A stretch of 64,000 bases of DNA, taken from UHGV virus genome UHGV-1550212; one strand, given 5' to 3'. The notes under the pieces are model-generated. The model saw nothing but the letters and a program-made list of their open reading frames with translations, did not search any database and was not told the DNA's origin. The position numbers were made by a program, and so were the translations under genes. This document shows, piece after piece, positions 1 through 63,945 of the stretch. The stretch's first letter is position 1, and each line of letters opens with the position of its first letter. Origin of the DNA: a virus.

Positions 1-646
1 CAATTACATCGTGGCCAATACCTGACATGGGCTCTGGCTCAGGTTCCGGTTCAGGTTCCGGTTCAGGTTCCGGTTCAGGCTCCGGTTCAGGTTCCGGTTC
101 AGGTTCCGGTTCAGGTTCCGGTTCCGGTTCCGGTTCAGGTTCCGGTTCAGGTTCCGGCTTGGGCTTTGATGAATAGTTAAACATCTTGTGAATCCATTTG
201 CACCACCATTTGTGACATGCATGTGCGCCATCATGATAATACGCTTGCAGCTCCATTGGAATTGCATGATATGCTTTGTCATGTGACATACCTTTGAATA
301 TTCGCAAGTACACATAGCACAAGCAATATGCAATGTAGTACATAAGCGGTGATGCAAGCAGCCACCACCAGCTAAGCACATTGCATGCTGCAAGCACAAT
401 AAGTACAAGCAACGTCGCAAGTGTTACAAAGATGAATTGCTTTGCATGCACAGCTTCATGCTTCAAGGTCTCAGAGTATCTGCTAAGTGTGTCATCATAT
501 GACTTATCACTTCTTATGAAGCACATTGCACACAACGACATTGCATAATAATGTGAAAATGGAATGCATGGCTGGTCGATGACAAGCATTGGTCCAGCAA
601 ACCACAGTCGCCACTGAGATTTATTTGGCAGTGTTGCAGTTTTCAT
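1..646 (-). CDS. HExxH metallopeptidase-like membrane protein with C-terminal (Glu-Pro)n linker; partial, 3' end beyond window
   Basis: ATG at 646..644 (minus), frame open to position 1, so absent from ORF track. Translation [19 protein letters not shown]...[24 protein letters not shown] (HEAVH = HExxH, then hydrophobic segments), ending in ~20 EP dipeptides. Confidence 0.55.
31..158 (-). repeat. Tandem GGTTCC/GGTTCA hexamer array (~21 units) encoding alternating Glu-Pro
   Basis: Direct reading; period 6/12 nt. The track ORF 4..420 (NLNRNL...) is the wrong frame of this array. Confidence 0.9.
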
Positions 647-10981: not shown

Positions 10982-12220
10982 CTATACACGTCTTGTCAAT
11001 TTGACATGACCGCAGTCATCTGCAAGCAGTTTAACATGACCGCAGTCATCTGCAAGCAGTTTAACATGACCGCAGTCATAAACTTTGACGAAGCCTGCAT
11101 CAATCATAGTTTGCTCATCATGATTGCAGTCAAGCACATGTGTATGAGTTTTCATATTGTACCAATGCAAGCCGATGTAAAAGTCAGTCTTGTGATATGC
11201 GTCAGTATATAATCGTGGGTCATCTATAGACAAATCAAGTTCGACGCAGTCAGCAGTCTGCAGTTGTTCTGTGTCAGTTAGCAATGATTTGACAAGCTTG
11301 ACTACAGCATCAAATGACATCCAATCAAATACAGTGATGCATCTATAGCCATGTTGCATAGCTGTGCAACATTTGTCAAAATGCGTAGTTGATGCAATTG
11401 GCTTGTTGACTGTAGAACGACCAGTAGCAAAATCAAATGCAAATGTGCTGTTATGCGTAAATGACGGATTGACATCAATTAGCAAATTGTCATATCGCAA
11501 ATCAAATGCGTAGCAATCTACGTCATGTTCATATTCAAAATCAACACCAGTATGCTCAAGTAGCATATCATGTAACAAGACGTTTGGCTTTGTAATGATT
11601 TTGCCATTTGCAAGTCTGCACTTCTGAGTTAAACAATGCCAAGGCACGCCATATCGTTCAAGTGTAGTGTTGCTAATCTTCTGCAAATTGCCAAAACCGC
11701 TGCCATAGCGTAATTGCTTTGTGACTGTTTGCTGTGCAACATTACCATTAGCATGACCAAACTTGTTGATGTTTGTTTGCTTGCGCTTAGCATTTGCAGT
11801 TGCAATATCAACAGATTCAAGTGACTCAAGAAATTTTGACATGTCGCCAAGCCCATTGCCATATAGTTGACGTTTAGTGTCAACAACTTTTGTCATGTTC
11901 CAGTGCTTGTAGCCATATCGAGCTTCTTTTGTCGCAAATGCTTTGTCATAGTTGCCAAAGCCTGCATGACCATATCGTTCAACTTTTGTTGCAGCAATTT
12001 TGTCTGAGACTTCTTTAAGCTGATGTTTGTATTCAACGCCAAACTTGCGCAAATTTGATATGCGAATGTTGAACACTCGTTTGACTTTTGTATGCGTAGA
12101 GCCTTTGTCAAGCTTTGCATATGGAATTTGTGCAAGTGCAGCGTCTCTTTCATCTTCAAGCTCTCTTATTCGAGCTTCAAGTGCATCACCAGCCAAAACT
12201 TCTATGCGTATAGTCTGCAT
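10982..12220 (-). CDS. Repeat/nuclease-like protein: coiled-coil N-terminus, 6-7 degenerate TK-x-(E/A)RYG repeats, C-terminal LLIDVNP..THNS domain; candidate free-standing homing endonuclease
   Basis: 412 aa; GDALEARIRELEDERD, repeated ...TKVERYG...TKEARYG...RQLYG...TLERYG; paralog of 16405..17604; C-terminal 30 aa is a triplicated decapeptide. Confidence 0.6.
   Translation of the reverse strand: MQTIRIEVLAGDALEARIRELEDERDAALAQIPYAKLDKGSTHTKVKRVFNIRISNLRKFGVEYKHQLKEVSDKIAATKVERYGHAGFGNYDKAFATKEARYGYKHWNMTKVVDTKRQLYGNGLGDMSKFLESLESVDIATANAKRKQTNINKFGHANGNVAQQTVTKQLRYGSGFGNLQKISNTTLERYGVPWHCLTQKCRLANGKIITKPNVLLHDMLLEHTGVDFEYEHDVDCYAFDLRYDNLLIDVNPSFTHNSTFAFDFATGRSTVNKPIASTTHFDKCCTAMQHGYRCITVFDWMSFDAVVKLVKSLLTDTEQLQTADCVELDLSIDDPRLYTDAYHKTDFYIGLHWYNMKTHTHVLDCNHDEQTMIDAGFVKVYDCGHVKLLADDCGHVKLLADDCGHVKLTRRV
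11004..11079 (-). repeat. Perfect 30-bp tandem repeat x2.5 at the 3' end of CDS 10982..12220
   Basis: Unit ACATGACCGCAGTCATCTGCAAGCAGTTTA; encodes DDCGHVKLLA x3; each unit carries inverted repeat ATGAC-CGCA-GTCAT. Confidence 0.9.
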
Positions 12221-15263: not shown

Positions 15264-15264
15264 G

Positions 15265-15729: not shown

Positions 15730-15781
15730 GGTAGATGTGGTTTATGCTTATGAGATTGAGACATGAAATTGAACATCAATG

Positions 15782-16405: not shown

Positions 16406-17604
16406 TAACTGTCATACGACCAGTGACCACAGTCATACACTGGCACAAATCCAGTGTCAAGCATTTCTTGCTCAATAAAGCCATCATCAAGCAAATGTTC
16501 ACCTGACTTCGTATTGACCCAATGCTTCTTAATTGTGCATTCATCAACCACAAAGGGATTAAGTGCATTGTCAGTGCAATCAATGAACACATTATTCAAA
16601 TGCGCGTCAATGACATGCAGCACAATTTCTGGGTTGTGCCAATCAAATATCATAAGTGGCGTGTAGCCACATACAATTGCAAGTTGTTGCTTCCACCAAT
16701 GATAGTTTGGCTGTTTTGCTTCTGCGGCATTTCGTTTAAAGCCATACACGCTATTATGAGTATGCGTCGGGTTAACGTCAATTAGCAGATTGCCATAATA
16801 CAGGTCATATGATGTTATGCCAACATCATGTTCAAACTCAAAATGCACACCAAGATGTTCTTCAATGTATGATTGCCACCATCTGTTTGGCGCAGATATG
16901 ATTTGCCCATTTGCTTGCATACATTTATTTGTCATGCAAAACCATGGCACACCGTAACGTTCCATACAGGTTTTTGAAATTGCAGCAAGCCATTCATCTT
17001 TGTCTCTATGCGGCCATGCATAACCATAACGCAGACGACATGTTTGTTGAGCTTTAGCAACGATTGGCGCTAAACGTTCACCGTATATTTCACGTTTAGT
17101 TGCGATGGCTTTGCGTGGATTAGTCCATCCAGCATCACCCCATCGCTCAAGCTTCGTTTGCTGAGATTTTTCAACAATCAGTTCAAGATTCTCACCATAT
17201 TTTTGACGACGAGTTTGCATTGCTGCAACATAATCTGTAATGCATCTATGGCCATACAAACGTTCTTTTGTCGCACTATGTGCTTTATCGCCATATGAAC
17301 TGCCGTAGCGTGCAACTTTAGTGGCAATTGTTTGCTTGATGTTGCCTGCTTTAGAACCATAACGAGCTTCTTTAGTTGCTACGCATTTTTGTTTGACTTC
17401 TGCTCTGTTCCAATTATGCTCAACGCCATGTTTACGAAGATGGCCAATTTTCATGTTGTACACGTTTTTGATATGACCATGAGATGTCTTACGTGGTGCA
17501 TATCGTACAAATGGTGTTTCTGCAAGCAACTTATCTCGTTCAGCTTCAAGCTCTTTAATTCGAGCTTCAAGAGCTTCACCAGTCAAATGCTCTACATGTT
17601 TCAT
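16405..17604 (-). CDS. Repeat/nuclease-like protein, paralog of 10982..12220 (399 aa)
   Basis: GEALEARIKELEAERD; repeats ...TKEARYG...TKVARYG...KERLYG...REIYG...RLRYG...MERYG; C-terminus ...NLLIDVNPTHTHNS. Confidence 0.6.
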   Translation of the reverse strand: MKHVEHLTGEALEARIKELEAERDKLLAETPFVRYAPRKTSHGHIKNVYNMKIGHLRKHGVEHNWNRAEVKQKCVATKEARYGSKAGNIKQTIATKVARYGSSYGDKAHSATKERLYGHRCITDYVAAMQTRRQKYGENLELIVEKSQQTKLERWGDAGWTNPRKAIATKREIYGERLAPIVAKAQQTCRLRYGYAWPHRDKDEWLAAISKTCMERYGVPWFCMTNKCMQANGQIISAPNRWWQSYIEEHLGVHFEFEHDVGITSYDLYYGNLLIDVNPTHTHNSVYGFKRNAAEAKQPNYHWWKQQLAIVCGYTPLMIFDWHNPEIVLHVIDAHLNNVFIDCTDNALNPFVVDECTIKKHWVNTKSGEHLLDDGFIEQEMLDTGFVPVYDCGHWSYDS

Positions 17605-18101
17605 TCGTGTTTGCCAGTTTGAAATAACGAATCAATTGGGATGTGAATACCAGGTTTGGATTGAATGTTCCATCCGCGCGCCAAACCATTAAGTACGCAG
17701 CTCGTAAGGTAAGAAAACGCGTTTTGAGTTACTGTTGGGTCAAACATTTGCCACTTTGACGCCAAAATTAACATGGCTTCTGCTGCGACATCTGCTTGTA
17801 AGTCTTTGTCCCTGTAGTATAAACGTCTCTGCACATGTTTGATAAGCAACTCAAACATGTGTATAAGTTTATTTGACAGCTGTCCAGATACTTTGCATGC
17901 GCATATTTCTGCACAAAGTTCTTTGCTGTTGATGTAATAGTTTGATGGCTGACCTCGCTTCTTTGTGTTTGCAGCTTCTTCACGAAGTTGGTCTTCAAGT
18001 TGTGTCAACATGTCATCATCTGACACGTATTGAATATGCTTGTCTTCTGGTAGTTTAGATTCTATTGGTTGTAAGTTTTGCAGTGGCATAGCAGTGAGCA
18101 T
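17601..18101 (-). CDS. Late-transcription sigma factor-like protein (T4 gp55-like)
   Basis: ...SNYYINSKELCAEICACK...NAFSYLTSCVLNGLARGW resembles the gp55 pattern as recalled; start chosen at ATG 18101, downstream of promoter motif (alternatives 18140, 18089). Confidence 0.4.
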   Translation of the reverse strand: MLTAMPLQNLQPIESKLPEDKHIQYVSDDDMLTQLEDQLREEAANTKKRGQPSNYYINSKELCAEICACKVSGQLSNKLIHMFELLIKHVQRRLYYRDKDLQADVAAEAMLILASKWQMFDPTVTQNAFSYLTSCVLNGLARGWNIQSKPGIHIPIDSLFQTGKHE

Positions 18102-18117
18102 TAAAATTCCTATATAA

Positions 18118-18146
18118 ATTGTACAACGCTTTGTGCACATTTGCAA
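18118..18146 (-). promoter_or_regulatory. Sigma70-like promoter (sense: TTGCAA-N17-TACAAT)
   Basis: Direct reading; upstream of sigma-like gene. Confidence 0.45.
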
Positions 18147-18155
18147 TCATAAAAA

Positions 18156-18179
18156 AGCTCAGCCAATTACGGCTGAGCT
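18156..18179 (-). terminator. Intrinsic terminator after 18206..19495
   Basis: AGCTCAGCC-AATTAC-GGCTGAGCT; A5 on plus = U-tract on sense. Confidence 0.55.
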
Positions 18180-18205
18180 TTCATTGAGATGCGTCTTGTC
18201 TGCCA

Positions 18206-21137: not shown

Positions 21138-22430
21138 CTACAACAATGACGGCACTCGTTGAGTTTCAAGTGGGTCGCTGACATTGATGCCTGTGTATGC
21201 AACAAGTCGTTGTATTGGGCCAAGTACGAGTTTTTCGAACATGAGTCGTTTGTTCATTGGCGGCACATCTGGCATATACTTCGGTGTCGGCATTTCGCCT
21301 GGTGCAAAGCCAAATGCATCGCAATATTGACGAGAGCCAATTGGTATATTTGACAAATCTGACTTTGCTCTGTCAACAAAGTAGTAGAACACTCGACCGC
21401 CTTCAATCAATGGGTATCGTGTTTCCAATCCATGTGCTTTGACAAGACAGTTATGCCAACAACATGCTCTATATTGAGGCAGTACACCTTTTGCTAACTG
21501 CCATTCACCATCATAGCTTAGCACATAGTCATGATACTTGTTTGCATTGACATATGCACAAAGTTTCTCCAAGTCTTGCTCGGCTTCAAAGCGTTTCCAT
21601 AATTTCTGTATGAGCTTTGGATATGTCGCAGAAGTTAATTCGCCTCTGAACATTTTCTTGAATGCATAATCAAGCATTTGTCTAACAAGCATTGACGAGC
21701 CTGTTTGAATAAGTTCGATGCCTTTGCCTTGAATGTGCTCAGTAGGGTCTTCGAATACTCGACCATCTACATATATTTGAGCCTTTAAGTACTTTTTCTT
21801 TTGGGCAAATAATGCAGTGTCAGAAATCGTTTCGAGGTCAAATAGCAAAATTGAATTGCCGTGGCGTTTTGCGAGGTCTGCTGCATATGCACCATTGAAT
21901 AACTCTTCCATACGATATTTGAATATCGCAAGAATCAAGTCATACCAATTTTTGCCTATGTAGCCAATTGATTTGACAGTTGGCTCAAAGTGAATGTACA
22001 AAGAGTCTGTATCAATGTACAACACTTTGTCTTCATAAGGCTCTTGCTTTGGCGACACAGACAAATCAAAATTGCCCTTCAATTGTGGGTCATTACGCAG
22101 CTTTTCATGCAATTCATAATCACACCACCACTTATTGTTGAGATAGTCATTTGCTACTCGTTCACCAAAGTGAATGAAGTTGCGGCCTTCAGCAGTAATT
22201 GATTCTGCAACTGCCATATTAAAGAAGTGATAGAAACGATTGCTTGTAGCGCCATATATTGAGTTTCGACAACATTTTGCTGAGACTTGCAGTCCTGCAT
22301 GCTTTAGTGATTCTTGCATTGCAAAATCTCTCAATTCAAATAGACGTTCAGTAGACAACTGGCTTAAATCACCAGTCAAATCTACTCCATCTATTTCAAT
22401 TTTTGACATATCTATCTGAGCTTCTGCCAT
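21138..22430 (-). CDS. DNA polymerase family B, C-terminal fragment (motifs B and C)
   Basis: ...CCRNSIYGATS (KxxxNSxYG) and ...VLYIDTDSLYIHF (YxDTDS); 430 aa; own promoter upstream. Confidence 0.85.
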   Translation of the reverse strand: MAEAQIDMSKIEIDGVDLTGDLSQLSTERLFELRDFAMQESLKHAGLQVSAKCCRNSIYGATSNRFYHFFNMAVAESITAEGRNFIHFGERVANDYLNNKWWCDYELHEKLRNDPQLKGNFDLSVSPKQEPYEDKVLYIDTDSLYIHFEPTVKSIGYIGKNWYDLILAIFKYRMEELFNGAYAADLAKRHGNSILLFDLETISDTALFAQKKKYLKAQIYVDGRVFEDPTEHIQGKGIELIQTGSSMLVRQMLDYAFKKMFRGELTSATYPKLIQKLWKRFEAEQDLEKLCAYVNANKYHDYVLSYDGEWQLAKGVLPQYRACCWHNCLVKAHGLETRYPLIEGGRVFYYFVDRAKSDLSNIPIGSRQYCDAFGFAPGEMPTPKYMPDVPPMNKRLMFEKLVLGPIQRLVAYTGINVSDPLETQRVPSLL

Positions 22431-22451: not shown

Positions 22452-22481
22452 ATTGTACTACACATGTTGCAATTTTTGCAA
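22452..22481 (-). promoter_or_regulatory. Sigma70-like promoter (TTGCAA-N18-TACAAT)
   Basis: Direct reading; upstream of polymerase C-terminal gene. Confidence 0.45.
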
Positions 22482-22499
22482 TACACATGTTAAACCAAA

Positions 22500-22528
22500 A
22501 TGCAGCAGCAGATGTTCTGCTGCTGCAT
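22500..22528 (-). terminator. Intrinsic terminator after 22572..23399
   Basis: ATGCAGCAGCAGA-TGT-TCTGCTGCTGCAT, 13-bp perfect stem, T-rich sense downstream. Confidence 0.6.
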
Positions 22529-22571
22529 CGGCAGGTATCTTCACAATTGTTTGAGTTGATTGCAATGCGAT

Positions 22572-23399
22572 TTAGAATGGCAGGTCGCCATCATCACCTA
22601 CAGCATCAAAATCAGCAGCAATGTCATATACCAACGTCATTGCGATTCGCAAATCACGTTTCTTAGATTTCAGACGCATGATGTCATGACCTGAATTGTT
22701 TGTGATGACTGAGCATTCAAACTCTTCATTGCCGTCGATGAATGACAGCATTGATTTGTGAATTGTGATTGGCGACAAATCTGACGGATATGACGAATCA
22801 ATCACATATTCAAAGTTGTTGTTCTTGGCAATTAGGCCTCGTTCAGTTGTGCGAATCTCAATGCCGGGCAGTTCCTTGTCACCTGTATTCAATGAGCCAT
22901 ACGATGACATGATGCCAAAGTGATTTGACGTCAAATCGAGCTTTCTCAGATTTGTTGTGCTATCAAACAGCATTGACATATCATTGTCAGACAGCTCAAA
23001 GTAGCCAAGTGATGGCATTGAACAAACCTGATTGATTTTGAGCTGATTGTTTGAGATTACAATGAGCTCTGCAATTGTATCTGTACCAATTTGTTTGACA
23101 TAGATTTCAATCATTGCATATGAGCCAAATGCAGCAAGTACTCGATTGTTGAATTGCGTGCCATTGTAAATAAGCGCCTTGACTGTGACATCTTTGAGTG
23201 TAGACTCATAATGTTCGCAAATGTCAAGCACATTAAGTGTCTGCGACTTTACAAAGCTACTATTGCCAGCATCAGTTCTGATTCGCTGGTCATTGAGTGA
23301 AAAGCTAAGCTTGCCATCGCATTTTAATGATGATGCAAACAATGCTCGCAGCATATCAATGTTTGCATTGCGTAACGTAATTTTGTTCAGATTTTCCAT
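22572..23399 (-). CDS. Hypothetical protein (275 aa); possible sliding clamp
   Basis: ATG start; acidic C-terminus; size and location between polymerase halves; clamp assignment weak. Confidence 0.5.
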   Translation of the reverse strand: MENLNKITLRNANIDMLRALFASSLKCDGKLSFSLNDQRIRTDAGNSSFVKSQTLNVLDICEHYESTLKDVTVKALIYNGTQFNNRVLAAFGSYAMIEIYVKQIGTDTIAELIVISNNQLKINQVCSMPSLGYFELSDNDMSMLFDSTTNLRKLDLTSNHFGIMSSYGSLNTGDKELPGIEIRTTERGLIAKNNNFEYVIDSSYPSDLSPITIHKSMLSFIDGNEEFECSVITNNSGHDIMRLKSKKRDLRIAMTLVYDIAADFDAVGDDGDLPF

Positions 23400-24723: not shown

Positions 24724-26229
24724 TTACAATTTGATTGCGCCTCTACGAGCAAGCTCTTCTTCAATCAATCGAACATGATTGTTAGCATACCAAAATTGCA
24801 ATTTTTTGTGATAATTGCGAACGTTGCCAAGCTGTTCTTGAGTTTCTTTATACATTGAAGGCTCTCTGTTGTCATACAGACAATTGTTGACTGACACAAA
24901 GTAATTTGGGTCTGCTTTGTAATGCTCAATTTCATCAGGATTTGTTAAACGTCTAATAAAGTTGTCTGGTGAAATATTCGCCGAGCGCATACTTGACGGA
25001 TACAATGAGTTTGCGTCAACACAGACAACCATACGAGCCCAATGGTTAAATGGTTGCTTAACAAAGCCGCCCTCAAATGAATGTACTACATTCTCTGGGC
25101 CACCTTGAGCACATACAACTTTGCCGCCATATTTGTTGTATAAGTATGTCATCATGACGCCCTCAGATTGCTTAACTGGTCCTTGGCAGTGATTCATGTC
25201 AATATTTGTCATATTTGACAATGACATCACATTTGATATCAAGTCAGTTTTTGCAGCAATCATTGCATTGACCATAGTATCGACAGCATTGTATGCAATG
25301 AATGTGCATGGATGATACAAATACAGCTCTTTAAGTGTGCAATCATAGGGCAACTTACCTACGCCGAACATACGATGTGCAATGTAGTCAAGTCGCAATG
25401 ATTCCTTTTGCCACACTGAATAGTCGTATGTGTCCATGAGCTGCATGTAGTCATCAATGTACTTGTGATATGGCATACCATTGCCCCAGACAGTTCTGCC
25501 AACTGGAGATGCCAATGCTAAATCAATATTGTGCATTGCGCATCGATTTTTGACATAGATGTTATCGAAGTCATTGATGTTCCAGCCTGTCAATGCAGGA
25601 ATGTTTTTGAAGAGCTTAGTCACCCAAAAATGCAACAATTCATGCTCATTTGCATGTTGAAAAATTTTGACAGTTGGATGTTCTTTCAAATACGCAGCAA
25701 AGCAATGTTGACCCATATACTCTTGAATGATGCCATTGACAAACTCAAATGCATCATCCAATGTTGGGTTTTGTTTGCCGCAGCTTTTGCGCAAATCATC
25801 ATCATTCAACAAGTCAACAGTAGTCTGAATGACACAATTGCATTGTTCATCGCATGTACTTATTGCATTAATGGGCATTTCAGCTTTGTCAGGCTTTGGA
25901 AAGCCATTGCCAATTTCAGTCTCAATATCGTAAAAGTACAACTTTGGTCTACGATAAGCAAACAATTCAGCTTTGTCAGCTTCAGGCAATTCAAATAAGA
26001 ATTGCAGCAAGTCAAATTGATTGAATCGTTTTGCTGTGACTCGAGTCACTGGCAATTTACGCCAATCTTGAATATCTGCATATTGAGGCTCTACGTGGTC
26101 TGATATTTGCCACACTGGAAATTGATATGGCTGTTCACAGACTGGGTATGTTTTGATGTCAATGCCACCTTGCTCATTAACATATGAGACTTCAATGCCA
26201 TGTGACAAATATGCTACGTCAACAATCAT
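24724..26229 (-). CDS. DNA polymerase family B, N-terminal fragment (3'-5' exonuclease + motif A)
   Basis: FYDIETE (Exo I), NINDFD (Exo II), YNAVD (Exo III), VDANSLYPS (motif A); 501 aa. Confidence 0.85.
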   Translation of the reverse strand: MIVDVAYLSHGIEVSYVNEQGGIDIKTYPVCEQPYQFPVWQISDHVEPQYADIQDWRKLPVTRVTAKRFNQFDLLQFLFELPEADKAELFAYRRPKLYFYDIETEIGNGFPKPDKAEMPINAISTCDEQCNCVIQTTVDLLNDDDLRKSCGKQNPTLDDAFEFVNGIIQEYMGQHCFAAYLKEHPTVKIFQHANEHELLHFWVTKLFKNIPALTGWNINDFDNIYVKNRCAMHNIDLALASPVGRTVWGNGMPYHKYIDDYMQLMDTYDYSVWQKESLRLDYIAHRMFGVGKLPYDCTLKELYLYHPCTFIAYNAVDTMVNAMIAAKTDLISNVMSLSNMTNIDMNHCQGPVKQSEGVMMTYLYNKYGGKVVCAQGGPENVVHSFEGGFVKQPFNHWARMVVCVDANSLYPSSMRSANISPDNFIRRLTNPDEIEHYKADPNYFVSVNNCLYDNREPSMYKETQEQLGNVRNYHKKLQFWYANNHVRLIEEELARRGAIKL

Positions 26230-29931: not shown

Positions 29932-30168
29932 TTATTCGAAATCCGTGTCATCTGCATTTTCATTAGGGTCATAGATAAGCCATACAAATGCTGCACAGCC
30001 AAGTATGAATAAGCCTCCGCCAATGATTGTCGTAAAAACCGAACCAATCCAATGCTTCATAATATCACCGAGCGGATTCAATGTTTCATAGCCAATCATA
30101 AATGCGACAAATACAACTATTATTGCTGCTATTGCTTTGTTTGTGGTATTTCGTTTTATTGTTGCCAT
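29932..30168 (-). CDS. Small membrane protein (78 aa)
   Basis: Trimmed to ATG 30168 (MATIKRNTT...); two hydrophobic segments. Confidence 0.5.
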   Translation of the reverse strand: MATIKRNTTNKAIAAIIVVFVAFMIGYETLNPLGDIMKHWIGSVFTTIIGGGLFILGCAAFVWLIYDPNENADDTDFE

Positions 30169-30199
30169 TGTAGTAGAGGTTTGTTGTGTTCTGTATATT

Positions 30200-30221
30200 A
30201 TGTTCGAATATATGAGGACAT
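30200..30221 (-). promoter_or_regulatory. Leader palindrome ATGTTCGAATATATGAGGACAT (copy 1 of 3)
   Basis: Between promoter 30237..30265 and start codon 30168; near-identical copies at 47427 and 54380. Confidence 0.5.
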
Positions 30222-30236
30222 ATATTATATATAGAT

Positions 30237-43783: not shown

Positions 43784-44842
43784 TTACTGCTTCAAGCCTG
43801 TGAACAGTTCATACTTGAATGCAGGCCCTGCTGTGTAAGCCTCAAAGTAGAAGTCACCAATATTGATGCTTGCAATAGCGTCATCGACAGCTTTCTTGTA
43901 GCCTACACGTTCAATTGTCTGCTTATCGCATTTACGCCAATATGTGCTGTGCATCATAAGCGTGGGTGATGCAGCATAGTCTACTGCAAGCTGTTGTTTT
44001 GCAGTGTCAATGTGATGTTCATAGATGTGCACATCATTGCCAGTCCAAATGAACTCTCTTGCCACACAGTTAGTCAATGTTGCAACAATATGTGTAAGCA
44101 ATGCATATGATGCGATATTGATGGGCACACCAAGACACATGTCACAGCTACGCTGAGTAAGCGCACAGTCAAGCCACATGCTTGGTACTTGAGCAGAATC
44201 AAGGCATTCTGCAGAACCATCATGCACAAGCATGCTATCATTAGCAATCTGAATTCGTTCTTCAAGAGTCATTGGCTGACAATTGAACTGAAACAGCATA
44301 TGACATGGCGGCAATGCCATCTGAGACATTTGCGCAGGATTCCATGCAGACACGACTTTGTAGCGGCCAGTTGGATTGATGACAATGTCTTTAATGCAAG
44401 TTGCAAGTTGGTCAAATCCACTGTCATTGAAGTTGCGCCACTGATACCCATAGATAGGTCCGCAATCACCATACTCAGGTTTGCTGAATTTTGTGTTGTG
44501 CAGTTCTGTGCACCAAGTGTCAAAGTCGACATCTTCACCTGGATGCAGCTTTTGCCAATGACGATATGCATCCTGATGCCAGAACTTTGTAATGCCAAGC
44601 GTGTCAAGCGTTTTGACATTAGTGTCACCTGACATAAACCACAGAAGTTCTCCAATGACGCCTTTGACAAACATTCTCTTGGATGTCAACAGTGGAAAGC
44701 CTTTACGCAAATCAAATCGCATTGATTCTACAAACAATGACTTTGTGCGAGGCATGTTTTCACGAGCAGGTTCCTTAAATCTGCCATGCTCAATAACATT
44801 ATTAAGTACTCTCAAGTACTCAGTGTCGTGTTTGATATTCAT
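43784..44842 (-). CDS. thyA: Thymidylate synthase (ThyA family) with an internal insertion
   Basis: FPLLTSKRMFVKGVIGELLWFMSG, GPIYGYQWRNF, ALPPCHMLFQF, QRSCDMCLGVPINIASYALL; Asn at the pyrimidine-specificity position. Confidence 0.8.
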   Translation of the reverse strand: MNIKHDTEYLRVLNNVIEHGRFKEPARENMPRTKSLFVESMRFDLRKGFPLLTSKRMFVKGVIGELLWFMSGDTNVKTLDTLGITKFWHQDAYRHWQKLHPGEDVDFDTWCTELHNTKFSKPEYGDCGPIYGYQWRNFNDSGFDQLATCIKDIVINPTGRYKVVSAWNPAQMSQMALPPCHMLFQFNCQPMTLEERIQIANDSMLVHDGSAECLDSAQVPSMWLDCALTQRSCDMCLGVPINIASYALLTHIVATLTNCVAREFIWTGNDVHIYEHHIDTAKQQLAVDYAASPTLMMHSTYWRKCDKQTIERVGYKKAVDDAIASINIGDFYFEAYTAGPAFKYELFTGLKQ

Positions 44843-45529: not shown

Positions 45530-47407
45530 TCAAAAGCCTGCAAAGAAATCAGCATCAGCAGCATCTTGCTGAGGTGTCGACTCTTGTTCAATCACAAATC
45601 GACTGTGCAACTTTTGATTATGTTTTATGTATGGCATAATGCGCCGGATTGATTCGTCAATGACAAATGTTTCACACCAGTCATTTGCATGTCGAATGCC
45701 TCGACCAACTGACTGTACGAAGCTTTGATAGCACTTGTTGCGATACCAGCTTTCGTGATTTGCAGCCTTTGTTTTTACTACGATATCACCAAGTGACTGC
45801 CAAGGTAATTTTGCAACAATTTGACATCTACAACGATTGTCTGGTAAGTCAACGCCTTCAGTAATGCTAAAGCCTACAAGTACGTAGTTAGTGCCATCAG
45901 CAAGCATTGCAAGTTTATTTTGTTTGTCTTCAGCATTGACATATGTCAGCATTCTGCGTTTGTGCTTGCTGTTGTTGATGATATAGTTTGCAATGTCTCG
46001 TGTTGATGTGTGTATGATACAGTTGCAGTCATGTGTATCAAGAATGCTGTCAATCTTCTCAACAAGTCGAGGCATATTTGCTGCTTTATTCTTGTAGCTC
46101 AATGACAACGCAGGTTTGCACAGTACAATGGGCGATTTGCTAAAATCCCAATCAGGCTCCATGTAGAATGCTACATAGTTTTTGATGCCATTGAGCGTAG
46201 CAAATGTATCAATGTCACCAATTGTCGCTGACATCCACAATTGTGCATGCGTAGCATCACTATGATGCACCAGTGTATTTGCAAGAAGCTCATCATTGAC
46301 ACATTTGAATTGCAAGCTGTTTGTTGCAGCATCAAGTACTACAAGCATGTCACCAGGTGATTGTTCAGTTGCATCAAGCATTGTAATGATTGAATATGAC
46401 AACGTATCACAGCTGGCAACAAAGCGAATGAACGCTTTCTCAAATTGACCAAGCATTTTGCCTGAATCCTGAAGTTCACGTAGCTTTTCATATGCAGTAT
46501 GCAAAAAGTCTACAAGTTCTGACAACTGCTGTGCAAGCACTCTTGCTTCTGCTCGCATTGTTGCAATGTCATATTGTGTTGTTGCAAGCTTAATGACTGC
46601 TTTGACTTGTGCAAACACATTGTTGCGAAGTTCTACATATTTGTTCTGATTTTCAAGAGTCATGATACCTGCAATCAGTGACTCGGCCTTTGTGCAATTC
46701 TGAATGAATCGAGGACCAATTGACGTGTCAAGAAAGCCTGACAAAATGTCATCAATCTTATGGCACTCATCGAATATCGTCAATTCACGAGGCCCAAACA
46801 AGTTTTTGACGCAATTAACTTGTATCAACCAGTACGCATAGTTAAGCACTGTGCAATTTGCTGCGGCAGCCTTTTGACGAGTCTGCAAATATGCGCATTT
46901 AGGTCCACATGGCAATGCAAGAGCTTTCTTTGATGACAACCCGTCTTGTTGGCATTTGCCCATACTGAATGGCAGACCATTGACATGACAAATGTAATTG
47001 TCTCGACCTTTGAGCATTACACAACTTCTGAATGCTGAAGTAGTTGTGTCTGCTTTAGCATTGTTGTCGTACAAATATTGTTGAATGAACTTGTCATACT
47101 GGTCTTGCAGCAGTTTATCAGAAGTCAGCACATACGACTTGAAGAATGTTGCGCAAAACATCGCAACCACAGATTTTCCCGTTCCAGTCGCTCCCTGCAA
47201 TATGACATGTTGCCCATTTGCAATTGCTCGAATAATGTCGATGATTAGATGACGCTGAGTTGCATCAAAACGCGCTTGGTCCCACTTGCATGTCTTTGAT
47301 TGCGCAAGATATGCTGAGAATTTATCAATATGTGCTACAATAAGCTCATCAAGTTCTTGCTGAGATTGCTCTTCTGTCTTATGTTCTGCTGGTGTTAGTC
47401 TACCCAT
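45530..47407 (-). CDS. Superfamily-2 DEAH helicase with Fe-S cluster cysteines (DinG/XPD-like)
   Basis: ILQGATGTGKS (Walker A), IFDECHKIDD (DExH), Cys cluster ...SCVMLK..YICHV..KCQ...PCGPKC. Confidence 0.7.
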   Translation of the reverse strand: MGRLTPAEHKTEEQSQQELDELIVAHIDKFSAYLAQSKTCKWDQARFDATQRHLIIDIIRAIANGQHVILQGATGTGKSVVAMFCATFFKSYVLTSDKLLQDQYDKFIQQYLYDNNAKADTTTSAFRSCVMLKGRDNYICHVNGLPFSMGKCQQDGLSSKKALALPCGPKCAYLQTRQKAAAANCTVLNYAYWLIQVNCVKNLFGPRELTIFDECHKIDDILSGFLDTSIGPRFIQNCTKAESLIAGIMTLENQNKYVELRNNVFAQVKAVIKLATTQYDIATMRAEARVLAQQLSELVDFLHTAYEKLRELQDSGKMLGQFEKAFIRFVASCDTLSYSIITMLDATEQSPGDMLVVLDAATNSLQFKCVNDELLANTLVHHSDATHAQLWMSATIGDIDTFATLNGIKNYVAFYMEPDWDFSKSPIVLCKPALSLSYKNKAANMPRLVEKIDSILDTHDCNCIIHTSTRDIANYIINNSKHKRRMLTYVNAEDKQNKLAMLADGTNYVLVGFSITEGVDLPDNRCRCQIVAKLPWQSLGDIVVKTKAANHESWYRNKCYQSFVQSVGRGIRHANDWCETFVIDESIRRIMPYIKHNQKLHSRFVIEQESTPQQDAADADFFAGF

Positions 47408-47448
47408 TCTAAATGAGATTTAGATTATGTTCGAATATATGAGAACAT
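47408..47448 (-). promoter_or_regulatory. Leader element: inverted repeat TCTAAAT-GAG-ATTTAGA plus palindrome ATGTTCGAATATATGAGAACAT (copy 2)
   Basis: Immediately upstream of helicase ATG; near-identical to 54361..54402. Confidence 0.5.
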
Positions 47449-47465
47449 ATATTATTTGTAAAAAT

Positions 47466-48065: not shown

Positions 48066-48947
48066 TTATCGTTTGAATTTGATGAAGTGTTCAGCATCAA
48101 GGCCCTCAAATATGTACGGGTCAAGAGTTTCCCAGAAGTTTGAGTATGTCGTTGTCTTTGCAATACTTGTCTGCTTTGACAAGTTCATGTTTGGATAGCC
48201 AAGCATTGCATAGTGTCGCTCATATATGTGCATTGACGTTGCATTATGCATATAAGCGCCAAGCTTAAGACCAAGTTCATTTGCGACAAGTTCTTGCAAC
48301 AAAGTGAATGCAAACTGGTCGTTACAGAAGCCCCAAATGACATCATTGCTTCGCATATATGTTGTCAAGTACAGCTTATCACCACGAACATTGAAAACAA
48401 GATTCAATGTGCACGGCATATCTTTGCCAGTGTAGTTTGCATATTGCGGCTCATAAATGCTAATAACTGCTCGTCTTGTGCATTCATGATTTCGCAAACG
48501 TTCAATGACATCTGCAATCTGCTTGTGCCAAATTGCGCCATACTGTGAATTGACATTGACGCCATCATCACTGAACTGCTTCCAACGAGGCAAATAACGT
48601 TCAATGCATTCAACTGCAGGATTGGCTGTCATATACCATGCAAATTCTGCAGCAGCATTGAGCTTTTTCCATGGTCGTACATCAATCTTGATTTGTCGCT
48701 GTGAAGGGTCCTGAATAACTACAGACACATTCAGCAATTCTTTTGTTCGAGTCACTGTTTGTGCATTGTTGCCCTTTGATTCTACAAACTCACCTCTACA
48801 ATGAAGTTCATACAAAATTGAGCGAAATGCTTCTGTTGCAGTGTTTTCAACGATTGTCGTCTGTTGATAGCATAAATTTGACGACAATGCTTCAGCATCA
48901 TTGTACTTTATGCTGTCATTGTCATAAGGTGAATTTTTTGTGTGCAT
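48066..48947 (-). CDS. dCMP hydroxymethylase-like ThyA-fold enzyme (T4 gp42-like)
   Basis: ...DMPCTLNLVF, YMRSNDVIWGFCNDQFAF, SMHIYERHY; Asp at the position where thymidylate synthases have Asn. Start at 48947 chosen; ATG at 49088 also possible (would overlap HAD gene). Confidence 0.65.
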   Translation of the reverse strand: MHTKNSPYDNDSIKYNDAEALSSNLCYQQTTIVENTATEAFRSILYELHCRGEFVESKGNNAQTVTRTKELLNVSVVIQDPSQRQIKIDVRPWKKLNAAAEFAWYMTANPAVECIERYLPRWKQFSDDGVNVNSQYGAIWHKQIADVIERLRNHECTRRAVISIYEPQYANYTGKDMPCTLNLVFNVRGDKLYLTTYMRSNDVIWGFCNDQFAFTLLQELVANELGLKLGAYMHNATSMHIYERHYAMLGYPNMNLSKQTSIAKTTTYSNFWETLDPYIFEGLDAEHFIKFKR

Positions 48948-48972
48948 ATTTTGGGATGTTTGTTTTTTATTA

Positions 48973-50067
48973 TCATACAACGATAGTATCTCGTTTGCAA
49001 TCTGTTTTGTCAAATATTGAACAACAATACGATGCAGATTGTTCTTTGATTTCAAGAGCTTCATCATTATCAAGTGATGAAATGCCATCTATGTATGCTT
49101 TTGCATTGCCAGCAATGTCATCATTTGTTAACAACGCTGCACGACGTTCAGTGCCAAAGAAGCCAAAGCACAATTGATGTTGCAGTGCTTCACGAGAAGT
49201 CTTGTCATCAAACTCTGATTTCATGTGTTGCATAAATTCGACAATATCATCAATGTCGCATTGAGTAAAGTCAATGCACAATTTATGCATGTACTTGAAT
49301 CGTTTGTAGTCTGTTGCAAGAATTTCTGGGTGCACAATGAACAACGTCTTTTTGCTGTCTATTGGATTTGCAATGACTGATGCTTGAACATAATCGACAA
49401 GCATACCAGATTCACGAAGTTGCTCAATTGTTTTGCCAAACACATGCCCAAGCGTGTCATCAAACCACTTCAAGTATGCTTCACTGTCTTCATCTTTTGA
49501 CGCGCCAACAATGTAAATCTCATTGACTCCAAGTGCTTTGAGACGAGTATCAGACAACATAGTATTCAATTGATGCTGCACGTACAGCATTGGGCTGCTA
49601 TGCAAAACCGTTTTAACAATCTCACAAGCAATGTCCATATATGCATAGTCAAGCTTTGCAGATTTTGACACATACACTGCACGTTGCTGCAATGGCTCAA
49701 TTGCCGAGCATGTAGTTACAAAGTTGCCAACACATTCTGCTACTGCAATGTCATGCAAGTCATCTGCAATGTACACAATACTTGACAAGTCATCAAATGT
49801 TTGAACAAGTTGCTGAAGCTTTGTTTTGTAATTGCAGAGCATCAATGACTTGATGTTGCAATTACTTAGCATTGTCTTGATGAGTCGTTGACCTGCTTCA
49901 GTGCTGTCACCAGAAATGACATGCACATCGCAGTCAAACCAGTTCAGCATGTCAATTGCATGCCGAACACCATATTGCATTTGTTTTGCAAACTTACCAG
50001 ATTCATTGAACAGCATTTCACCTGACATAATGCCGTCAAAGTCACATACGATTTGAAGTCTGTCCAT
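48973..50067 (-). CDS. HAD-superfamily phosphatase domain protein with C-terminal domain
   Basis: VCDFDGIM (motif I DxDG), VHVISGDS, IADDLHD. Confidence 0.55.
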   Translation of the reverse strand: MDRLQIVCDFDGIMSGEMLFNESGKFAKQMQYGVRHAIDMLNWFDCDVHVISGDSTEAGQRLIKTMLSNCNIKSLMLCNYKTKLQQLVQTFDDLSSIVYIADDLHDIAVAECVGNFVTTCSAIEPLQQRAVYVSKSAKLDYAYMDIACEIVKTVLHSSPMLYVQHQLNTMLSDTRLKALGVNEIYIVGASKDEDSEAYLKWFDDTLGHVFGKTIEQLRESGMLVDYVQASVIANPIDSKKTLFIVHPEILATDYKRFKYMHKLCIDFTQCDIDDIVEFMQHMKSEFDDKTSREALQHQLCFGFFGTERRAALLTNDDIAGNAKAYIDGISSLDNDEALEIKEQSASYCCSIFDKTDCKRDTIVV

Positions 50068-54358: not shown

Positions 54359-54360
54359 AT

Positions 54361-54402
54361 TCTAAATGAGATTTAGATTATGTTCGAAATATATGAGAAC
54401 AT
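54361..54402 (-). promoter_or_regulatory. Leader element (copy 3): TCTAAATGAGATTTAGA + ATGTTCGAAATATATGAGAACAT
   Basis: Immediately upstream of Mre11-Rad50 ATG. Confidence 0.5.
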
Positions 54403-54417
54403 ATATTATATGTTGAT

Positions 54418-54446: not shown

Positions 54447-54783
54447 GCATTTTGATGATTGCATCTATCACAGTTTCACTGAGCAAGTAGTAGACAACGC
54501 TTATCAGCAATGATATCAGTACTGCAGCTGTGATAAATTGCAACGCATTCACAATTGCACGCACAAATGTTATCTGCGTGTTGTATGCAAGCACTATGCA
54601 GCATAGCACAATAATGACACACCAGACTACAATTGCATATGCAGGCATCAATGAATTTGTCCATATGCAGTACAATACAGTAATTAGCATCAAAAATGCT
54701 ATTGCTCTGATAACTGACACAATGATGTCTATGTAAGGCTTCATTGCACGCAAATGAACTCTTGGTTTATGTTGCTTCATCAT
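54436..54783 (-). CDS. Multi-pass membrane protein (115 aa)
   Basis: ATG start; hydrophobic. Confidence 0.55.
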   Translation of the reverse strand: MMKQHKPRVHLRAMKPYIDIIVSVIRAIAFLMLITVLYCIWTNSLMPAYAIVVWCVIIVLCCIVLAYNTQITFVRAIVNALQFITAAVLISLLISVVYYLLSETVIDAIIKMLAK

Positions 54784-56012
54784 GACTTTATGTACAATTC
54801 TGCAAGTTGTCTGGTGTACAGTCGTGGATTATGATATGCTTTCCAATACGCAGTAGACTTTATTGCAGCAAGAATTTCATCATAATGTTTGACTGCTTCT
54901 GCTACAACTTCATCAAGCACGCTCAAATCTTCTACACTGACAAGCAACCATTTTTCTACAATATCAATGAACTCCTGATTGCAATTGAAGCCATACTTGT
55001 AGTTGCAAGTATCAAGTACAAGTGGAATGCAATCATTTGTCAATGCTTCAAAAAATCTACGAAGACTGAAACAATTCTCATCATATGATGGAATGCTCAA
55101 TGTAAACTTGGCAGTCTTGATGAGTTGCAAATACTCTTCGTATGGAATCAGAGGACCATTGTGCTTCCATTGATTATTGTGTCGTCTTGTCGTGTACTTG
55201 AACAAAAACTTTGAATTGTCAAGTTCACAAAGATGGTCCATGCGTAAAATGTAGTTATAGCGGTCTCTTCTGTCAGGCCAACTGTCAGTCATCGCAAACA
55301 CAAAGTCTCTTTGCTTGTCACATTTTGCTGACATACCTCTATGCTGACACATGCAATACCAATATTGCTGCGATGGGCTGAACTCAAACTTTGAATGATG
55401 CTCACTTCCATCTTTGCATTGCTGAACATAAATGTTGTCAGGCACAAAGTGAAAATAAAAGTGTCGAATTTGCAAGTCATTGATGTAGTCAAGCTTATGC
55501 TGCAATGGGTCTTCACAGAAATTGTAACACTGAATATGCTTTGCTGCTGCGTACTCAGCAACTATGAACGTGCACATCCATTGCAATGCAATATCTTCAC
55601 TCTTCAAAAAGTTTACAAGCGGCTCATTTGGATGCGCTTTGCATTCATTGAACATTTTGTACCACTTGCATTGCTCCATATCGTACTTTGATACTGTATT
55701 GCCATTAAAGAACGACACAGTGTCAATTTTGAATGCATCAAGTTGTTTATGCACAATGTCAAGTGCTTGTGCGTATGTGATTGTCTCATCAGACATTATC
55801 TGCGCAAACTTGATTGGATGCGCATGCAAATTTGCGATAGTGTCTGCCGACATTTTACGCTGTGTGTGATAATCGACATACAAAAACTGACACTTGTCTG
55901 TAAGCAATTCAAGCATTGCTACAGATTTCCATCGAATTGCTTGAAAGAAATTGAAGTGTGCAGTTTGAAAGATGAGATGCGTAGGTTTATCAGAATGAGT
56001 CAAAGTTTGCAT
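54780..56012 (-). CDS. Glycosyltransferase-like protein (GT-B type), cassette 1
   Basis: C-terminal ...IPSYDENCFSLRRFFEALTNDCIPLV (E...EA..x.P motif); paralog of 59060..60616. Confidence 0.45.
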   Translation of the reverse strand: MQTLTHSDKPTHLIFQTAHFNFFQAIRWKSVAMLELLTDKCQFLYVDYHTQRKMSADTIANLHAHPIKFAQIMSDETITYAQALDIVHKQLDAFKIDTVSFFNGNTVSKYDMEQCKWYKMFNECKAHPNEPLVNFLKSEDIALQWMCTFIVAEYAAAKHIQCYNFCEDPLQHKLDYINDLQIRHFYFHFVPDNIYVQQCKDGSEHHSKFEFSPSQQYWYCMCQHRGMSAKCDKQRDFVFAMTDSWPDRRDRYNYILRMDHLCELDNSKFLFKYTTRRHNNQWKHNGPLIPYEEYLQLIKTAKFTLSIPSYDENCFSLRRFFEALTNDCIPLVLDTCNYKYGFNCNQEFIDIVEKWLLVSVEDLSVLDEVVAEAVKHYDEILAAIKSTAYWKAYHNPRLYTRQLAELYIKS

Positions 56013-59039: not shown

Positions 59040-59068
59040 ACAGTACAACGTAGTTATGCTCATTGCAC
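59040..59068 (-). promoter_or_regulatory. Weak sigma70-like promoter (GTGCAA-N17-TACTGT)
   Basis: Direct reading. Confidence 0.3.
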
Positions 59069-62416: not shown

Positions 62417-62480
62417 TTTAAGATATATGAGATTTCGTTGAAACCACTTTGTTTCAGACCAAGTTAGCCATTTCATATGC

Positions 62481-63921: not shown

Positions 63922-63945
63922 AACACTTGTTGTTAAAATATCGTC

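Follow-up and report, generated by a model that had tools for sequence, protein, structure and literature searches.

A divergent gp55-family sigma factor gene behind a host-type promoter in the virion module of an uncultured T4-like gut phage

Organization of the locus

The window analysed here is the whole 64,000-nucleotide stretch (64 kb) of the virus genome UHGV-1550212, from an uncultured T4-like phage of the human gut. On its minus strand, an open reading frame of 166 amino acids runs from an ATG at 18101 to a TGA at 17601–17603 (window coordinates) and encodes a small sigma factor. The features of the locus are as follows.

17601–18101, minus strand: coding sequence of the gp55-family sigma factor, 166 amino acids plus stop codon
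18108–18111, minus strand: ribosome-binding site AGGA, 6 nt 5' of the ATG, read directly from the sequence
18118–18146, minus strand: host sigma-70-type promoter of the sigma gene, with -35 TTGCAA at 18141–18146, a 17-nt spacer and -10 TACAAT at 18118–18123
18153–18182, minus strand: intrinsic terminator with a 13-bp stem, a 4-nt loop and a U run (-21.9 kcal/mol)
16405–17604, minus strand: 399-amino-acid DUF7487 gene (Pfam DUF7487 at E = 5.9e-10)

A longer reading frame that starts with TTG and extends up to 18146 was rejected; it would overlap the promoter, and the gene calls of related contigs give 166 amino acids instead.

The head-fibre gene and a 429-amino-acid gene lie upstream of the sigma gene, and the repeat-rich DUF7487 gene lies downstream of it, followed by a tail-tube-like gene and other genes of the virion module. 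The ATG of the DUF7487 gene overlaps the stop codon of the sigma gene (ATGA), and the whole DUF7487 gene stands in place of a spacer of about 50 nt between the sigma gene and a 198-amino-acid gene. None of five related contigs (L001–L004, with 95% sigma identity, and L006, with 71%) has a DUF7487 gene at the sigma-adjacent site. The original prediction had put the sigma gene between a repeat/nuclease-like gene and structural genes; the setting is as described, and the repeat gene turns out to be a strain-specific mobile insertion. Paralogues of the DUF7487 gene are present elsewhere in the genome. The source phage also encodes a gp23-like capsid protein, a T4-type portal, gp2 and a prohead protease. 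Two contigs of a single gut metagenome, 128.6 and 44.7 kb long, carry parts of it, and no near-identical DNA match was found in the phage collection searched. Neither Rfam families nor tRNAs were found in the window.

The terminator hairpin is far more stable than those of shuffled sequences (-21.9 against -8.6 ± 2.4 kcal/mol; z = -5.6), and none of 200 shuffles was as stable. It lies past the stop codon (18206–18208) of the 429-amino-acid gene, and no convincing terminator was found after the sigma gene. The gene had been predicted to possess its own promoter and terminator; the terminator is real and, as the text of that prediction itself has it, belongs to the upstream gene: it closes the upstream late operon of the head-fibre and 429-amino-acid genes, not the sigma gene. 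A hairpin occurs at the equivalent position in three related contigs (L001, L006 and L007), and the order terminator, promoter, sigma gene is retained in relatives with 95, 71 and 39% protein identity. In one close relative the promoter-like sequence is present as three copies in tandem.

Membership of the gp55 family and fold of the protein

The 166-amino-acid protein matches the 'late sigma transcription factor' family phrog_234 at E = 1.9e-7, and so do all 73 of the 73 aligned members of its own family. The profile built from these 73 sequences picked out T4 gp55 (7D7C_F) at E = 1e-12 and, ranking behind it, further structures of sigma region 2, and hhalign of the profile against T4 gp55 gave 97.6% probability (E = 3e-12). 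The gp55-like identity proposed earlier from the sequence thus withstood formal search, and the protein is a real but divergent member of the gp55 family. How divergent it is can be seen from single-sequence comparisons: BLASTP aligns the protein only weakly to T4 gp55, with 19% identity and E = 0.004, and a single-sequence search of the PDB returned no sigma factors, only chance matches (mS25, PDE6), so that the family profile was needed. A word-indexed protein search found just two close homologues; the wider family required an exhaustive search of cluster representatives, which gave 592 at E ≤ 1e-3, mostly of 110–130 amino acids. The best matches in cultured phages, at 28–37% identity, are in Chryseobacterium phages MA9V-1/2, Sphingomonas phage PAU, Tenacibaculum phage PTm1, Prevotella phage Lak and Pseudomonas phage PA5oct.

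The protein shares the helical region-2 fold of ECF/group-4 sigma factors and of sigma-70, with scores below the curated cut-offs both for PF04542 (Sigma70_r2; E = 0.005, 17.1 bits against 24) and for TIGR02937 (E = 0.011, 15.3 bits against 42.9). Sigma70_r2 is its sole sigma-related Pfam trace, and neither Pfam nor NCBIfam gave a match to region 4. Since the protein has no region 4, recognition of a -35 element by it is impossible.

The AF2 model is all-helical (pLDDT 87.9), and its best PDB match is T4 gp55, with an rmsd of 1.7 Å over 99 columns at probability 1.00; the Foldseek E-value of this match is only 0.04 and its TM-score, normalised to the target, is 0.63. Sigma region-2 domains again rank next. 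Three parts of the protein can be distinguished.

17946–18101, minus strand: N-terminal extension, amino acids 1–52; family matches begin at about residue 53
17658–17945, minus strand: sigma region-2 homology core, amino acids 53–148, corresponding to about residues 7–114 of T4 gp55
17604–17657, minus strand: short C-terminal tail, amino acids 149–166, with HIPIDSLFQ

The N-terminal extension is restricted to a small sub-clade (P0001–P0003); in the model its residues 1–27 are of low confidence and residues 28–48 form a charged helix. The N-terminal end of the core falls at T4 residue 5 or 7, depending on which of two alignments is used. Conserved residues of the core are Y56, R93, D104, F120, N127, Y131 and T133.

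Functional residues of T4 gp55 were taken from PMC7892883, mapped by pairwise alignment and counted in 153 family sequences. Residues of the T4 promoter pocket are retained (R57 as R93, F86 as F120, Y97 as Y131 and T99 as T133), with V90 standing for L54. Two contacts to the clamp helices of RNA polymerase are likewise retained, namely E70 as D104 (D in 147 and E in 6 of the 153 sequences) and D74 as E108, and a third, E77, is changed to L111. T4 H95 is replaced by F129, a phenylalanine being present in 150 of the 153 members, and T4 N13 corresponds to S59, with N in close relatives. The pockets for the flipped -12 and -8 bases are conserved and that for the -9 base is altered.

The C-terminal part differs most from T4. 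Beyond the counterpart of T4 K111 the protein has just 21 more residues; T4 R114 aligns to S148, with K149 next to it. Neither the alignment nor the AF2 model of the 166-amino-acid protein showed a match to the T4 helix-loop-helix (long helix 4 plus helix 5, with R114), and the model places a single short helix of lower confidence at 156–163 in the tail. Because the protein ends about 21 residues past helix 4, T4 helix 5, conserved segment 3 (141–156), the divergent linker and the C-terminal clamp motif have no clear counterparts in it.

The tail sequence HIPIDSLFQ recurs unchanged in both close homologues, P0001 and P0002. Its longer form, HIPIDSLFQTGKHE, resembles the T4 end PSLDFLYEAND, and the relatives of the sub-clade end in ISLDTFINNDTDQVE and HISIDALFANEDKSDY. 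Bacterial clamp-binding motifs have the form QL[SD]LF, to which the xDSLF of the tail bears a faint, candidate likeness. The reading as a clear clamp-binding motif was nevertheless downgraded on comparison of 153 tails: the motif follows helix 4 closely and at constant spacing, where the profile puts the family's 'SISLD' on T4 YSYFVH, the start of helix 5, and a different sub-clade that is closer to T4 has a T4-like extended helix 4 with 'NPSFTY' at the tail position. For these two reasons we regard the tail as ambiguous; it may be either a truncated helix 5 of the helix-loop-helix or a clamp-binding-like motif.

Host-type promoter sites and candidate late boxes

The promoter of the sigma gene has its TTGCAA and TACAAT hexamers exactly where they had been predicted, and a conserved GTTG lies within it at 18124–18127. 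Together with 12 almost identical sites in the same orientation it makes up a class of 13, of the form TGCAAA-N14-GTTGTACAATAT; the full motif of about 30 nt, TGCAA(A)-N13/14-GTTGTACAAT(AT), is on the gene strand at all 13. The minus strand carries seven exact copies of the 10-mer of the motif and the plus strand none. When one mismatch is allowed, the 10-mer has 26 matches compared with 9.6 ± 3.0 expected, a number that none of 100 shuffles reached. Sites of this class other than that of the sigma gene include the following.

22452–22481, minus strand: promoter-class site TTGCAA-18-TACAAT, after a 14-bp terminator and before the polymerase part of DNA polymerase B
26258–26286, minus strand: promoter-class site before the exonuclease part of DNA polymerase B
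54418–54446, minus strand: promoter-class site before a 1308-amino-acid SbcD-SbcC-like gene
63893–63974, minus strand: two tandem promoter-class sites before a 460-amino-acid gene

The annotated genes behind such sites act in replication (DNA polymerase), recombination (SbcCD-like) and nucleotide metabolism, and no recognised virion gene directly follows any of the sites that have an annotated downstream gene. This distribution fits expression ahead of the late genes. The promoter had been called early-type, a description to which the 12 further copies, which precede replication-type genes where the downstream gene is annotated, lend support, with the qualification that early and middle classes are indistinguishable from sequence alone.

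The T4 late box TATAAATA has no exact match in the 64 kb, and allowing one mismatch reveals no enrichment in front of virion genes, with 17 matches on the gene strand and 25 on the opposite one. A search of the upstream regions of 16 virion-module genes for enriched k-mers gave de novo seeds of the types GTATATAT and TACATATA, and a candidate box of the TACATAT type precedes several virion genes, that of the major capsid protein among them.

16390–16403, minus strand: candidate late-type box GGTACATAAACAAA, 25 nt 5' of the ATG (16378) of the 198-amino-acid tail-tube-like gene
33988–33994, minus strand: candidate late box TACATAT, 29 nt 5' of a 1101-amino-acid virion-module gene and directly past a terminator
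21030–21036, minus strand: candidate late box TACATAT, 43 nt 5' of the head-fibre gene
3607–3613, minus strand: candidate late box TACATAT(ATC), 66 nt 5' of a 945-amino-acid gene and past a terminator

At the box position before the 198-amino-acid gene, relatives have ATACATATATCAAA (L001) and CTATATATAACA (L006). The strand-specific count of TACATAT, a box that is short, AT-rich and picked after inspection of the data, is weak-to-moderate evidence that it serves as a late box. Upstream of the structural genes, where a search for a distinct late motif had been suggested as a check, the T4 form is absent and the TACATAT type is a candidate. A 14-nt weight matrix built from nine sites was discarded, as it was unspecific beyond its training sites and one site was mis-registered.

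Proposed role and comparison with known sigma factors

Both T4 gp55 (PDB 7D7C/7D7D, chain F) and the present protein have a sigma fold made of region 2 only, with no region 4. They share the N-terminal motif Y(x)3N(x)EL (T4 Y10), a basic residue at R57, the acidic contacts E70/D74 and the pocket residues F86/Y97/T99. The two phages likewise have in common the T4-type portal, gp2, the prohead protease and the gp23-like capsid. Both sigma genes appear to be under a pre-late promoter; T4 gp55 is classed among the middle products in one account (PMC6024815). On the other hand, the identity is only about 19%, the present protein has a 52-amino-acid N-terminal extension and carries the substitutions H95 to F, N13 to S, L83 to W and W23 to C, and the T4 late box TATAAATA is not in this window. 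The gene is inside the virion module, whereas that of T4 is in the replication/early region.

A second likeness is to the 'minimal' sigma factors of the group-2 (T4-superfamily) jumbo phages (Iyer et al. 2021, PMC7824862; phrog_234), which are also small and single-domain. The phages of this group, with a family-B DNA polymerase, a UvsW-type helicase and a gp23-type capsid, all encode sigma factors, some of them minimal (PMC7824862). Within that group the N-terminal extension is confined to the sub-clade P0001–P0003, and the source phage here is uncultured. No biochemically characterised member of the minimal clade was found in the literature searched. The gene does not define a new kind of system; it adds one more ordinary member to a known family, of a sort that T4-like phages are expected to carry.

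We consider it highly probable that the gene encodes a divergent late sigma factor of the gp55 family, which is expressed from its own transcription unit ahead of the late genes and redirects the host polymerase to the virion genes. The host primary sigma factor would read the sigma-gene promoter and thereby bring about its expression before late gene activity is required, and the terminator would insulate this promoter from late transcription of the upstream head genes. The region-2-only sigma would then dock on the clamp helices of the host core RNA polymerase, read a short element akin to a -10 box in the promoters of late (virion) genes, and direct the polymerase to the surrounding virion genes, probably through the AT-rich TAyATAT-type box and not through TATAAATA.

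A sliding clamp and a gp33-like co-activator may take part, as in T4. By PHROGs and Pfam, no gp33, gp45 clamp or gp44/62 clamp loader was found among the scanned proteins of the window and the upstream 10-kb flank (L009), nor were gp33, gp45 or a clamp loader in the precomputed Pfam list of the downstream flank (L008); the search covered about 84 kb in total. Phage Mu, in which MuC and the host beta clamp are involved (PMC12867686), offers an analogy of clamp-coupled late transcription only, as MuC is not a sigma factor.

A more far-reaching reading, which we put forward as speculative, is that the protein belongs to a large uncharacterised 'mini-gp55' clade, the 592 representatives found here, in which helix 5, segment 3 and the linker have been lost, the hydrophobic-acidic motif has been joined directly to helix 4 and the -9 pocket has been remodelled (F for H95, S/N at N13). 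Such factors might use a TAyATAT-type box, which differs from TATAAATA at -9, and might either dispense with a clamp or contact one, that of the phage or the host beta clamp, in an arrangement unlike that of the T4 activation complex.

It is unlikely that the protein is instead a gp55-like sigma factor for a middle or other non-late class of genes, or a specificity subunit that acts independently of clamp and co-activator. Such a role would agree with a tail of only 21 residues past helix 4, which has neither a T4-type linker nor a separate acidic-hydrophobic terminus, with the failure to find gp45 and gp33 in the 84 kb, and with the basal transcription that T4 gp55 still supports when its C-terminal region is removed (PMC7892883). 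However, all characterised family members are late factors (PMC2988020), the gene is inside the virion module, the partners may lie in the remaining third or more of the genome, and HIPIDSLFQ is similar to the T4 clamp-binding motif SLDFLY.

Very improbable is a decoy that occupies the clamp helices of the host polymerase and shuts off host sigma-dependent transcription, with no promoter recognition of its own. The protein consists of little more than the region-2 core, the part that binds the clamp helices, and its acidic contact residues are conserved, as a decoy would have it; but R93, F120, Y131 and T133 of the base-flipping pockets for the -10-like element, which a pure decoy would not need, are conserved in at least 150 family representatives. 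That the promoter and terminator fit their consensus merely by chance, with the gene co-transcribed with its neighbours, is scarcely credible: generic sigma-70 sites do occur at chance level in a sequence so rich in A and T (60 found, with shuffles giving 56.7 ± 5.8), but the co-orientation of the 13 motif copies, the confinement of the exact 10-mer to the gene strand (seven against none), the hairpin z-score of -5.6 and the retention of the arrangement in divergent relatives despite sequence change and the three tandem promoter-like copies in one close relative all speak against it.

The assignment of a late sigma factor of the gp55 family gives a functional annotation to a gene of an uncultured human-gut T4-like phage, and lets two kinds of promoter be mapped provisionally in that phage, namely the 13 host-type sites and the candidate late box. 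In sequence databases, minimal versions of gp55 far outnumber the T4 form, the sole basis of all mechanistic work, and they are without parts that are important in T4: helix 5 of the helix-loop-helix, the linker and the clamp-binding tail. Helix 5, segment 3 and the linker all matter for the activity of T4 gp55 (PMC7892883). If the minimal forms function without those parts, a question larger than this locus alone can answer, the sliding-clamp model of late-gene activation may not generalise across the family.

Relationship of the sigma protein to T4 gp55

The original prediction had taken the 166-aa product of the gene at 17601..18101 for a gp55-like late sigma factor, and our profile searches agree. 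The protein matches phrog_234, the PHROGs family 'late sigma transcription factor', at E 1.9e-7; Pfam Sigma70_r2 and TIGR02937 gave below-threshold matches only. A word-indexed protein search returned just two close homologues (P0001 and P0002), and an exhaustive search yielded 592 cluster representatives at E <= 1e-3; the majority are 110-130 aa long and span query residues ~53-162. All 73 aligned family members match phrog_234, and the profile of these 73 sequences finds T4 gp55 (7D7C chain F) at E 1e-12, ahead of bacterial sigma region-2 structures. Comparison with T4 gp55 by hhalign gave 97.6% probability, and direct identity is ~19%. The AlphaFold2 model built from the alignment has a mean pLDDT of 87.9; in the PDB it resembles gp55 most closely (rmsd 1.7 Å over 99 columns, probability 1.00, E 0.04), and numerous sigma domain-2 structures come next. 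Additional matches to HNH or endonuclease VII families were seen in eight of the 73 aligned proteins, and to a Lar-like family in seven, which may reflect true fusions or gene-calling artefacts; longer family members extend N-terminally of the sigma core, and these domains probably lie in that extra part.

Cryo-EM of the T4 late complex showed that N13, L54, R57, F86, H95, Y97 and T99 form pockets for the flipped -12, -9 and -8 bases, and that E70, D74 and E77 touch the polymerase clamp helices (PMC7892883). The corresponding residues were mapped from a pairwise alignment to T4 gp55 and counted over 153 family sequences.

Counterparts of T4 gp55 functional residues in the window protein
N13: S59; N in the close homologues P0001 and P0002
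L54: V90
R57: R93; K or R in 112/153
E70: D104; D in 147/153, E in the other 6
D74: E108
E77: L111
F86: F120; F or Y in 150/153
H95: F129; F in 150/153
Y97: Y131; aromatic in 151/153
T99: T133; T or S in 152/153

Judged by the residues kept and changed, the pockets for -12 and -8 look intact, as does the surface that binds polymerase, and the -9 pocket differs. The rival explanation that the protein is a pure polymerase-binding decoy is disfavoured by this pattern.

The gp55-like sigma protein differs from its T4 counterpart at both ends. Unlike T4 gp55 and most family members, it has a 52-residue N-terminal extension, in which residues 28-48 are modelled confidently as a charged helix. Beyond the equivalent of T4 K111 there are 21 residues, compared with 74 in T4, and nothing clearly corresponds to T4's HLH helix 5, conserved 'segment 3' (141-156), divergent linker or separate hydrophobic-acidic clamp-binding terminus (PMC7892883, PMC2988020). 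The short tail contains HIPIDSLFQ, which is invariant in P0001 and P0002. This may be a clamp-binding motif; the tail shows likeness to T4 PSLDFLYEAND, and ISLDTFINNDTDQVE or HISIDALFANEDKSDY closes the protein in sub-clade relatives. It may also be a remnant of helix 5: its spacing from helix 4 is short and constant, a sub-clade closer to T4 has 'GLNPSFTYQ' at its position followed by long acidic tails, and the family tail motif is aligned by profile to T4 YSYFVH, which lies where helix 5 begins. In T4, gp55 deprived of its clamp-binding motif still supports activation, though more weakly, and the motif of gp33 is essential (PMC7892883). Elsewhere in the window, a 275-aa protein (22572..23399) ends in DDGDLPF, similar to the bacterial SSB C-terminal tail, a UvsW-like helicase (45530..47407) in DADFFAGF, and the polymerase in QRVPSLL; these ends may be protein-recruitment tails.

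Transcription unit and promoter of the sigma gene

Features of the sigma locus and DUF7487 genes
18153..18182, minus: terminator hairpin, 13-bp stem then U run
18118..18146, minus: promoter TTGCAA-17 nt-TACAAT, 5' of the sigma gene
6 nt 5' of the sigma ATG, minus: AGGA
17601..18101, minus: sigma ORF, ATG at 18101 to TGA at 17601..17603, 166 aa
16405..17604, minus: 399-aa DUF7487 gene; its ATG overlaps the sigma stop codon (ATGA) and its TAA overlaps an ATG of the next ORF
10982..12220: DUF7487 gene
L008 (downstream flank of the same phage) 14486-15877 and 18029-19090: DUF7487 genes; other positions in the related contigs L001 and L002

The promoter and hairpin lie exactly where they had been predicted. 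The hairpin starts 24 nt past the stop codon of the upstream 429-aa gene, and its folding energy is -21.9 kcal/mol, compared with -8.6 +/- 2.4 in shuffled sequences (z = -5.6); 3' of the sigma gene no convincing terminator was found. A longer, TTG-started ORF extending to 18146 would cover the promoter, and is unused in the gene calls of related contigs, where the product is likewise 166 aa. The order terminator hairpin, promoter-like AT-rich stretch, sigma gene is common to three sets of relatives: gut-metagenome contigs with a 95% identical sigma protein (the L001 set, with the promoter unit triplicated in L001 itself), L006 (71% identity; promoter TTGCAT-17-TACTTT) and L007 (39% identity). 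Since this order is conserved although the intergenic sequence itself is not, the comparison argues that the sigma gene is maintained as a unit transcribed on its own and shielded from the late head operon 5' of it.

A generic sigma-70 scan found 60 sites, against 56.7 in shuffled sequence, and by this chance-level result alone the sigma promoter is without meaning. Yet the promoter belongs to a group of 13 sites that share ~30 nt, TGCAA(A)-N13/14-GTTGTACAAT(AT), all in gene orientation. The minus strand has seven exact copies of a 10-mer of the motif and the plus strand none, and one mismatch gives 26 matches where 9.6 +/- 3.0 are expected. Two of the other 12 sites precede the two halves of a split family-B DNA polymerase; the rest of the downstream genes include those for the 275-aa protein with the SSB-like tail, a fused SbcD-SbcC-like nuclease, and thymidylate-kinase-like, other nucleotide-metabolism or modification, and small unknown proteins. 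None of the 12 is followed by a recognised virion gene, and the predicted 'early-type' label is therefore reasonable. The sigma promoter can reasonably be regarded as pre-late and read by host sigma, early and middle not being separable from sequence. Beyond the window, the motif also recurs in the flank, ahead of a 340-aa gene and a DUF7487 gene.

The polymerase halves (exonuclease part 24724..26229, 501 aa; polymerase part 21138..22430, 430 aa) lie 2.3 kb apart, each with a separate copy of the conserved promoter. Between them are dUTPase, MazG, a 116-aa protein and the 275-aa protein, and relatives have an extra DUF7487 gene in this gap. All but one or two window genes are on the minus strand, where replication-type and virion-type modules alternate with terminator-plus-promoter junctions between them (e.g. 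22499..22529 plus 22452..22481). T4 differs in having the majority of its late genes on the other strand.

DUF7487 genes and a candidate late box

The 399-aa DUF7487 gene is missing at its site in four close contigs (95% sigma identity) and one of 71% identity, all of which have instead ~50 nt with a candidate late box between the sigma gene and a 198-aa gene. The family comprises at least four genes of 31-40% identity with repeated K/R-x-x-YG units, at intergenic sites whose positions differ between closely related phage strains. Given this absence and these scattered, strain-variable paralogues, the 399-aa gene behaves like a free-standing homing-type mobile gene, a putative nuclease gene inserted here and sharing the sigma promoter. 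At 11011..11100 (minus), just 5' of the portal gene, a 30-nt tandem repeat in two exact copies plus a partial one gives a 412-aa DUF7487 protein three C-terminal VKLLADDCGH units.

The T4 late box TATAAATA is absent from the window, and variants with one mismatch show no enrichment. Inspection by eye and k-mer enrichment of 16 virion-module upstream regions pointed to a recurring candidate, a TGTAyATAT(w)yCAAA-like box 13-66 nt 5' of start codons, preceding the 945-aa, 1371-aa (prohead-protease-containing), portal, head-fibre, 1101-aa, 476-aa and other genes. A weight matrix built from these sites is not specific beyond its own training set. More telling, in our judgement, is the strand-specific 7-mer TACATAT, found 12 times on the gene strand of the window plus a 9.3 kb flank. 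Five of these 12, and none of eight reverse-complement occurrences, lie 10-75 nt 5' of a start codon, a zone occupying 6% of the sequence (binomial estimate ~5e-4, for a motif chosen after looking). Beyond both window and training set, the box precedes a gp23-like major capsid gene, and outside the window a related TATATATC precedes a 576-aa gene. Also beyond the training set, the spacer between the sigma and 198-aa genes keeps ATACATATATCAA in L001 and CTATATATAACA in L006, in otherwise diverged relatives. If aligned with T4 TATAAAT, TAyATAT would differ at -9, the base read by two pocket residues that are changed here.

Genome context and place in the gp55 family

Parts of this phage are on 128.6-kb and 44.7-kb scaffolds of one gut metagenome, so that only part of the genome is in view. 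No gp45-like clamp, clamp loader or gp33 was found among the scanned proteins of the window and upstream 10-kb flank, or in the precomputed Pfam list for the downstream flank; the upstream flank encodes a gp32-like SSB. By analogy, we infer that there may be a clamp-coupled step.

Several other features were recognised. The minus strand carries three copies of a conserved 5' leader, AATATATGTyCTCATATATTCGAACATAAT (~54359..54412, ~47408..47458 and ~30166..30231); two copies, at the SbcCD-like and helicase genes, run on into CTAAATCTCATTTAGA directly 5' of AUG. It folds into a small hairpin or two, with z of -3.8 and -3.1 in the two long copies; the second hairpin adjoins the start codon. The leader has no Rfam match and may be a translational operator. 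A cluster (43784..44842, 48066..49088, 54780..57175, 59060..60616 and 61751..62476) of two thymidylate-synthase-like, one dCMP deaminase, two GT47-like glycosyltransferase and one beta-glucosyltransferase-like genes suggests DNA base hypermodification. A CCTGAACCGGAA-type tandem repeat (window 1..420 and L008:12839-13793) corresponds to a run of N in a related scaffold, so it is probably length-variable and assembly-breaking.

Gene 55 belongs to the T4-family core gene set (PMC2988020), and such sigma factors, including 'minimal' ones, are described as universal, with gp33 orthologues, in large phages of the T4 superfamily ('group 2') (PMC7824862). T4 gp55 too is a middle-class product (PMC6024815). 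With both family and expression logic known from the literature, the sigma gene of this uncultured gut phage adds a new and divergent representative to an established family, and its expression arrangement mirrors known logic; the overall interpretation first proposed is supported. Of wider interest, the very common minimal forms of gp55 would have to work without HLH helix 5 and a linker-tethered clamp-binding tail.
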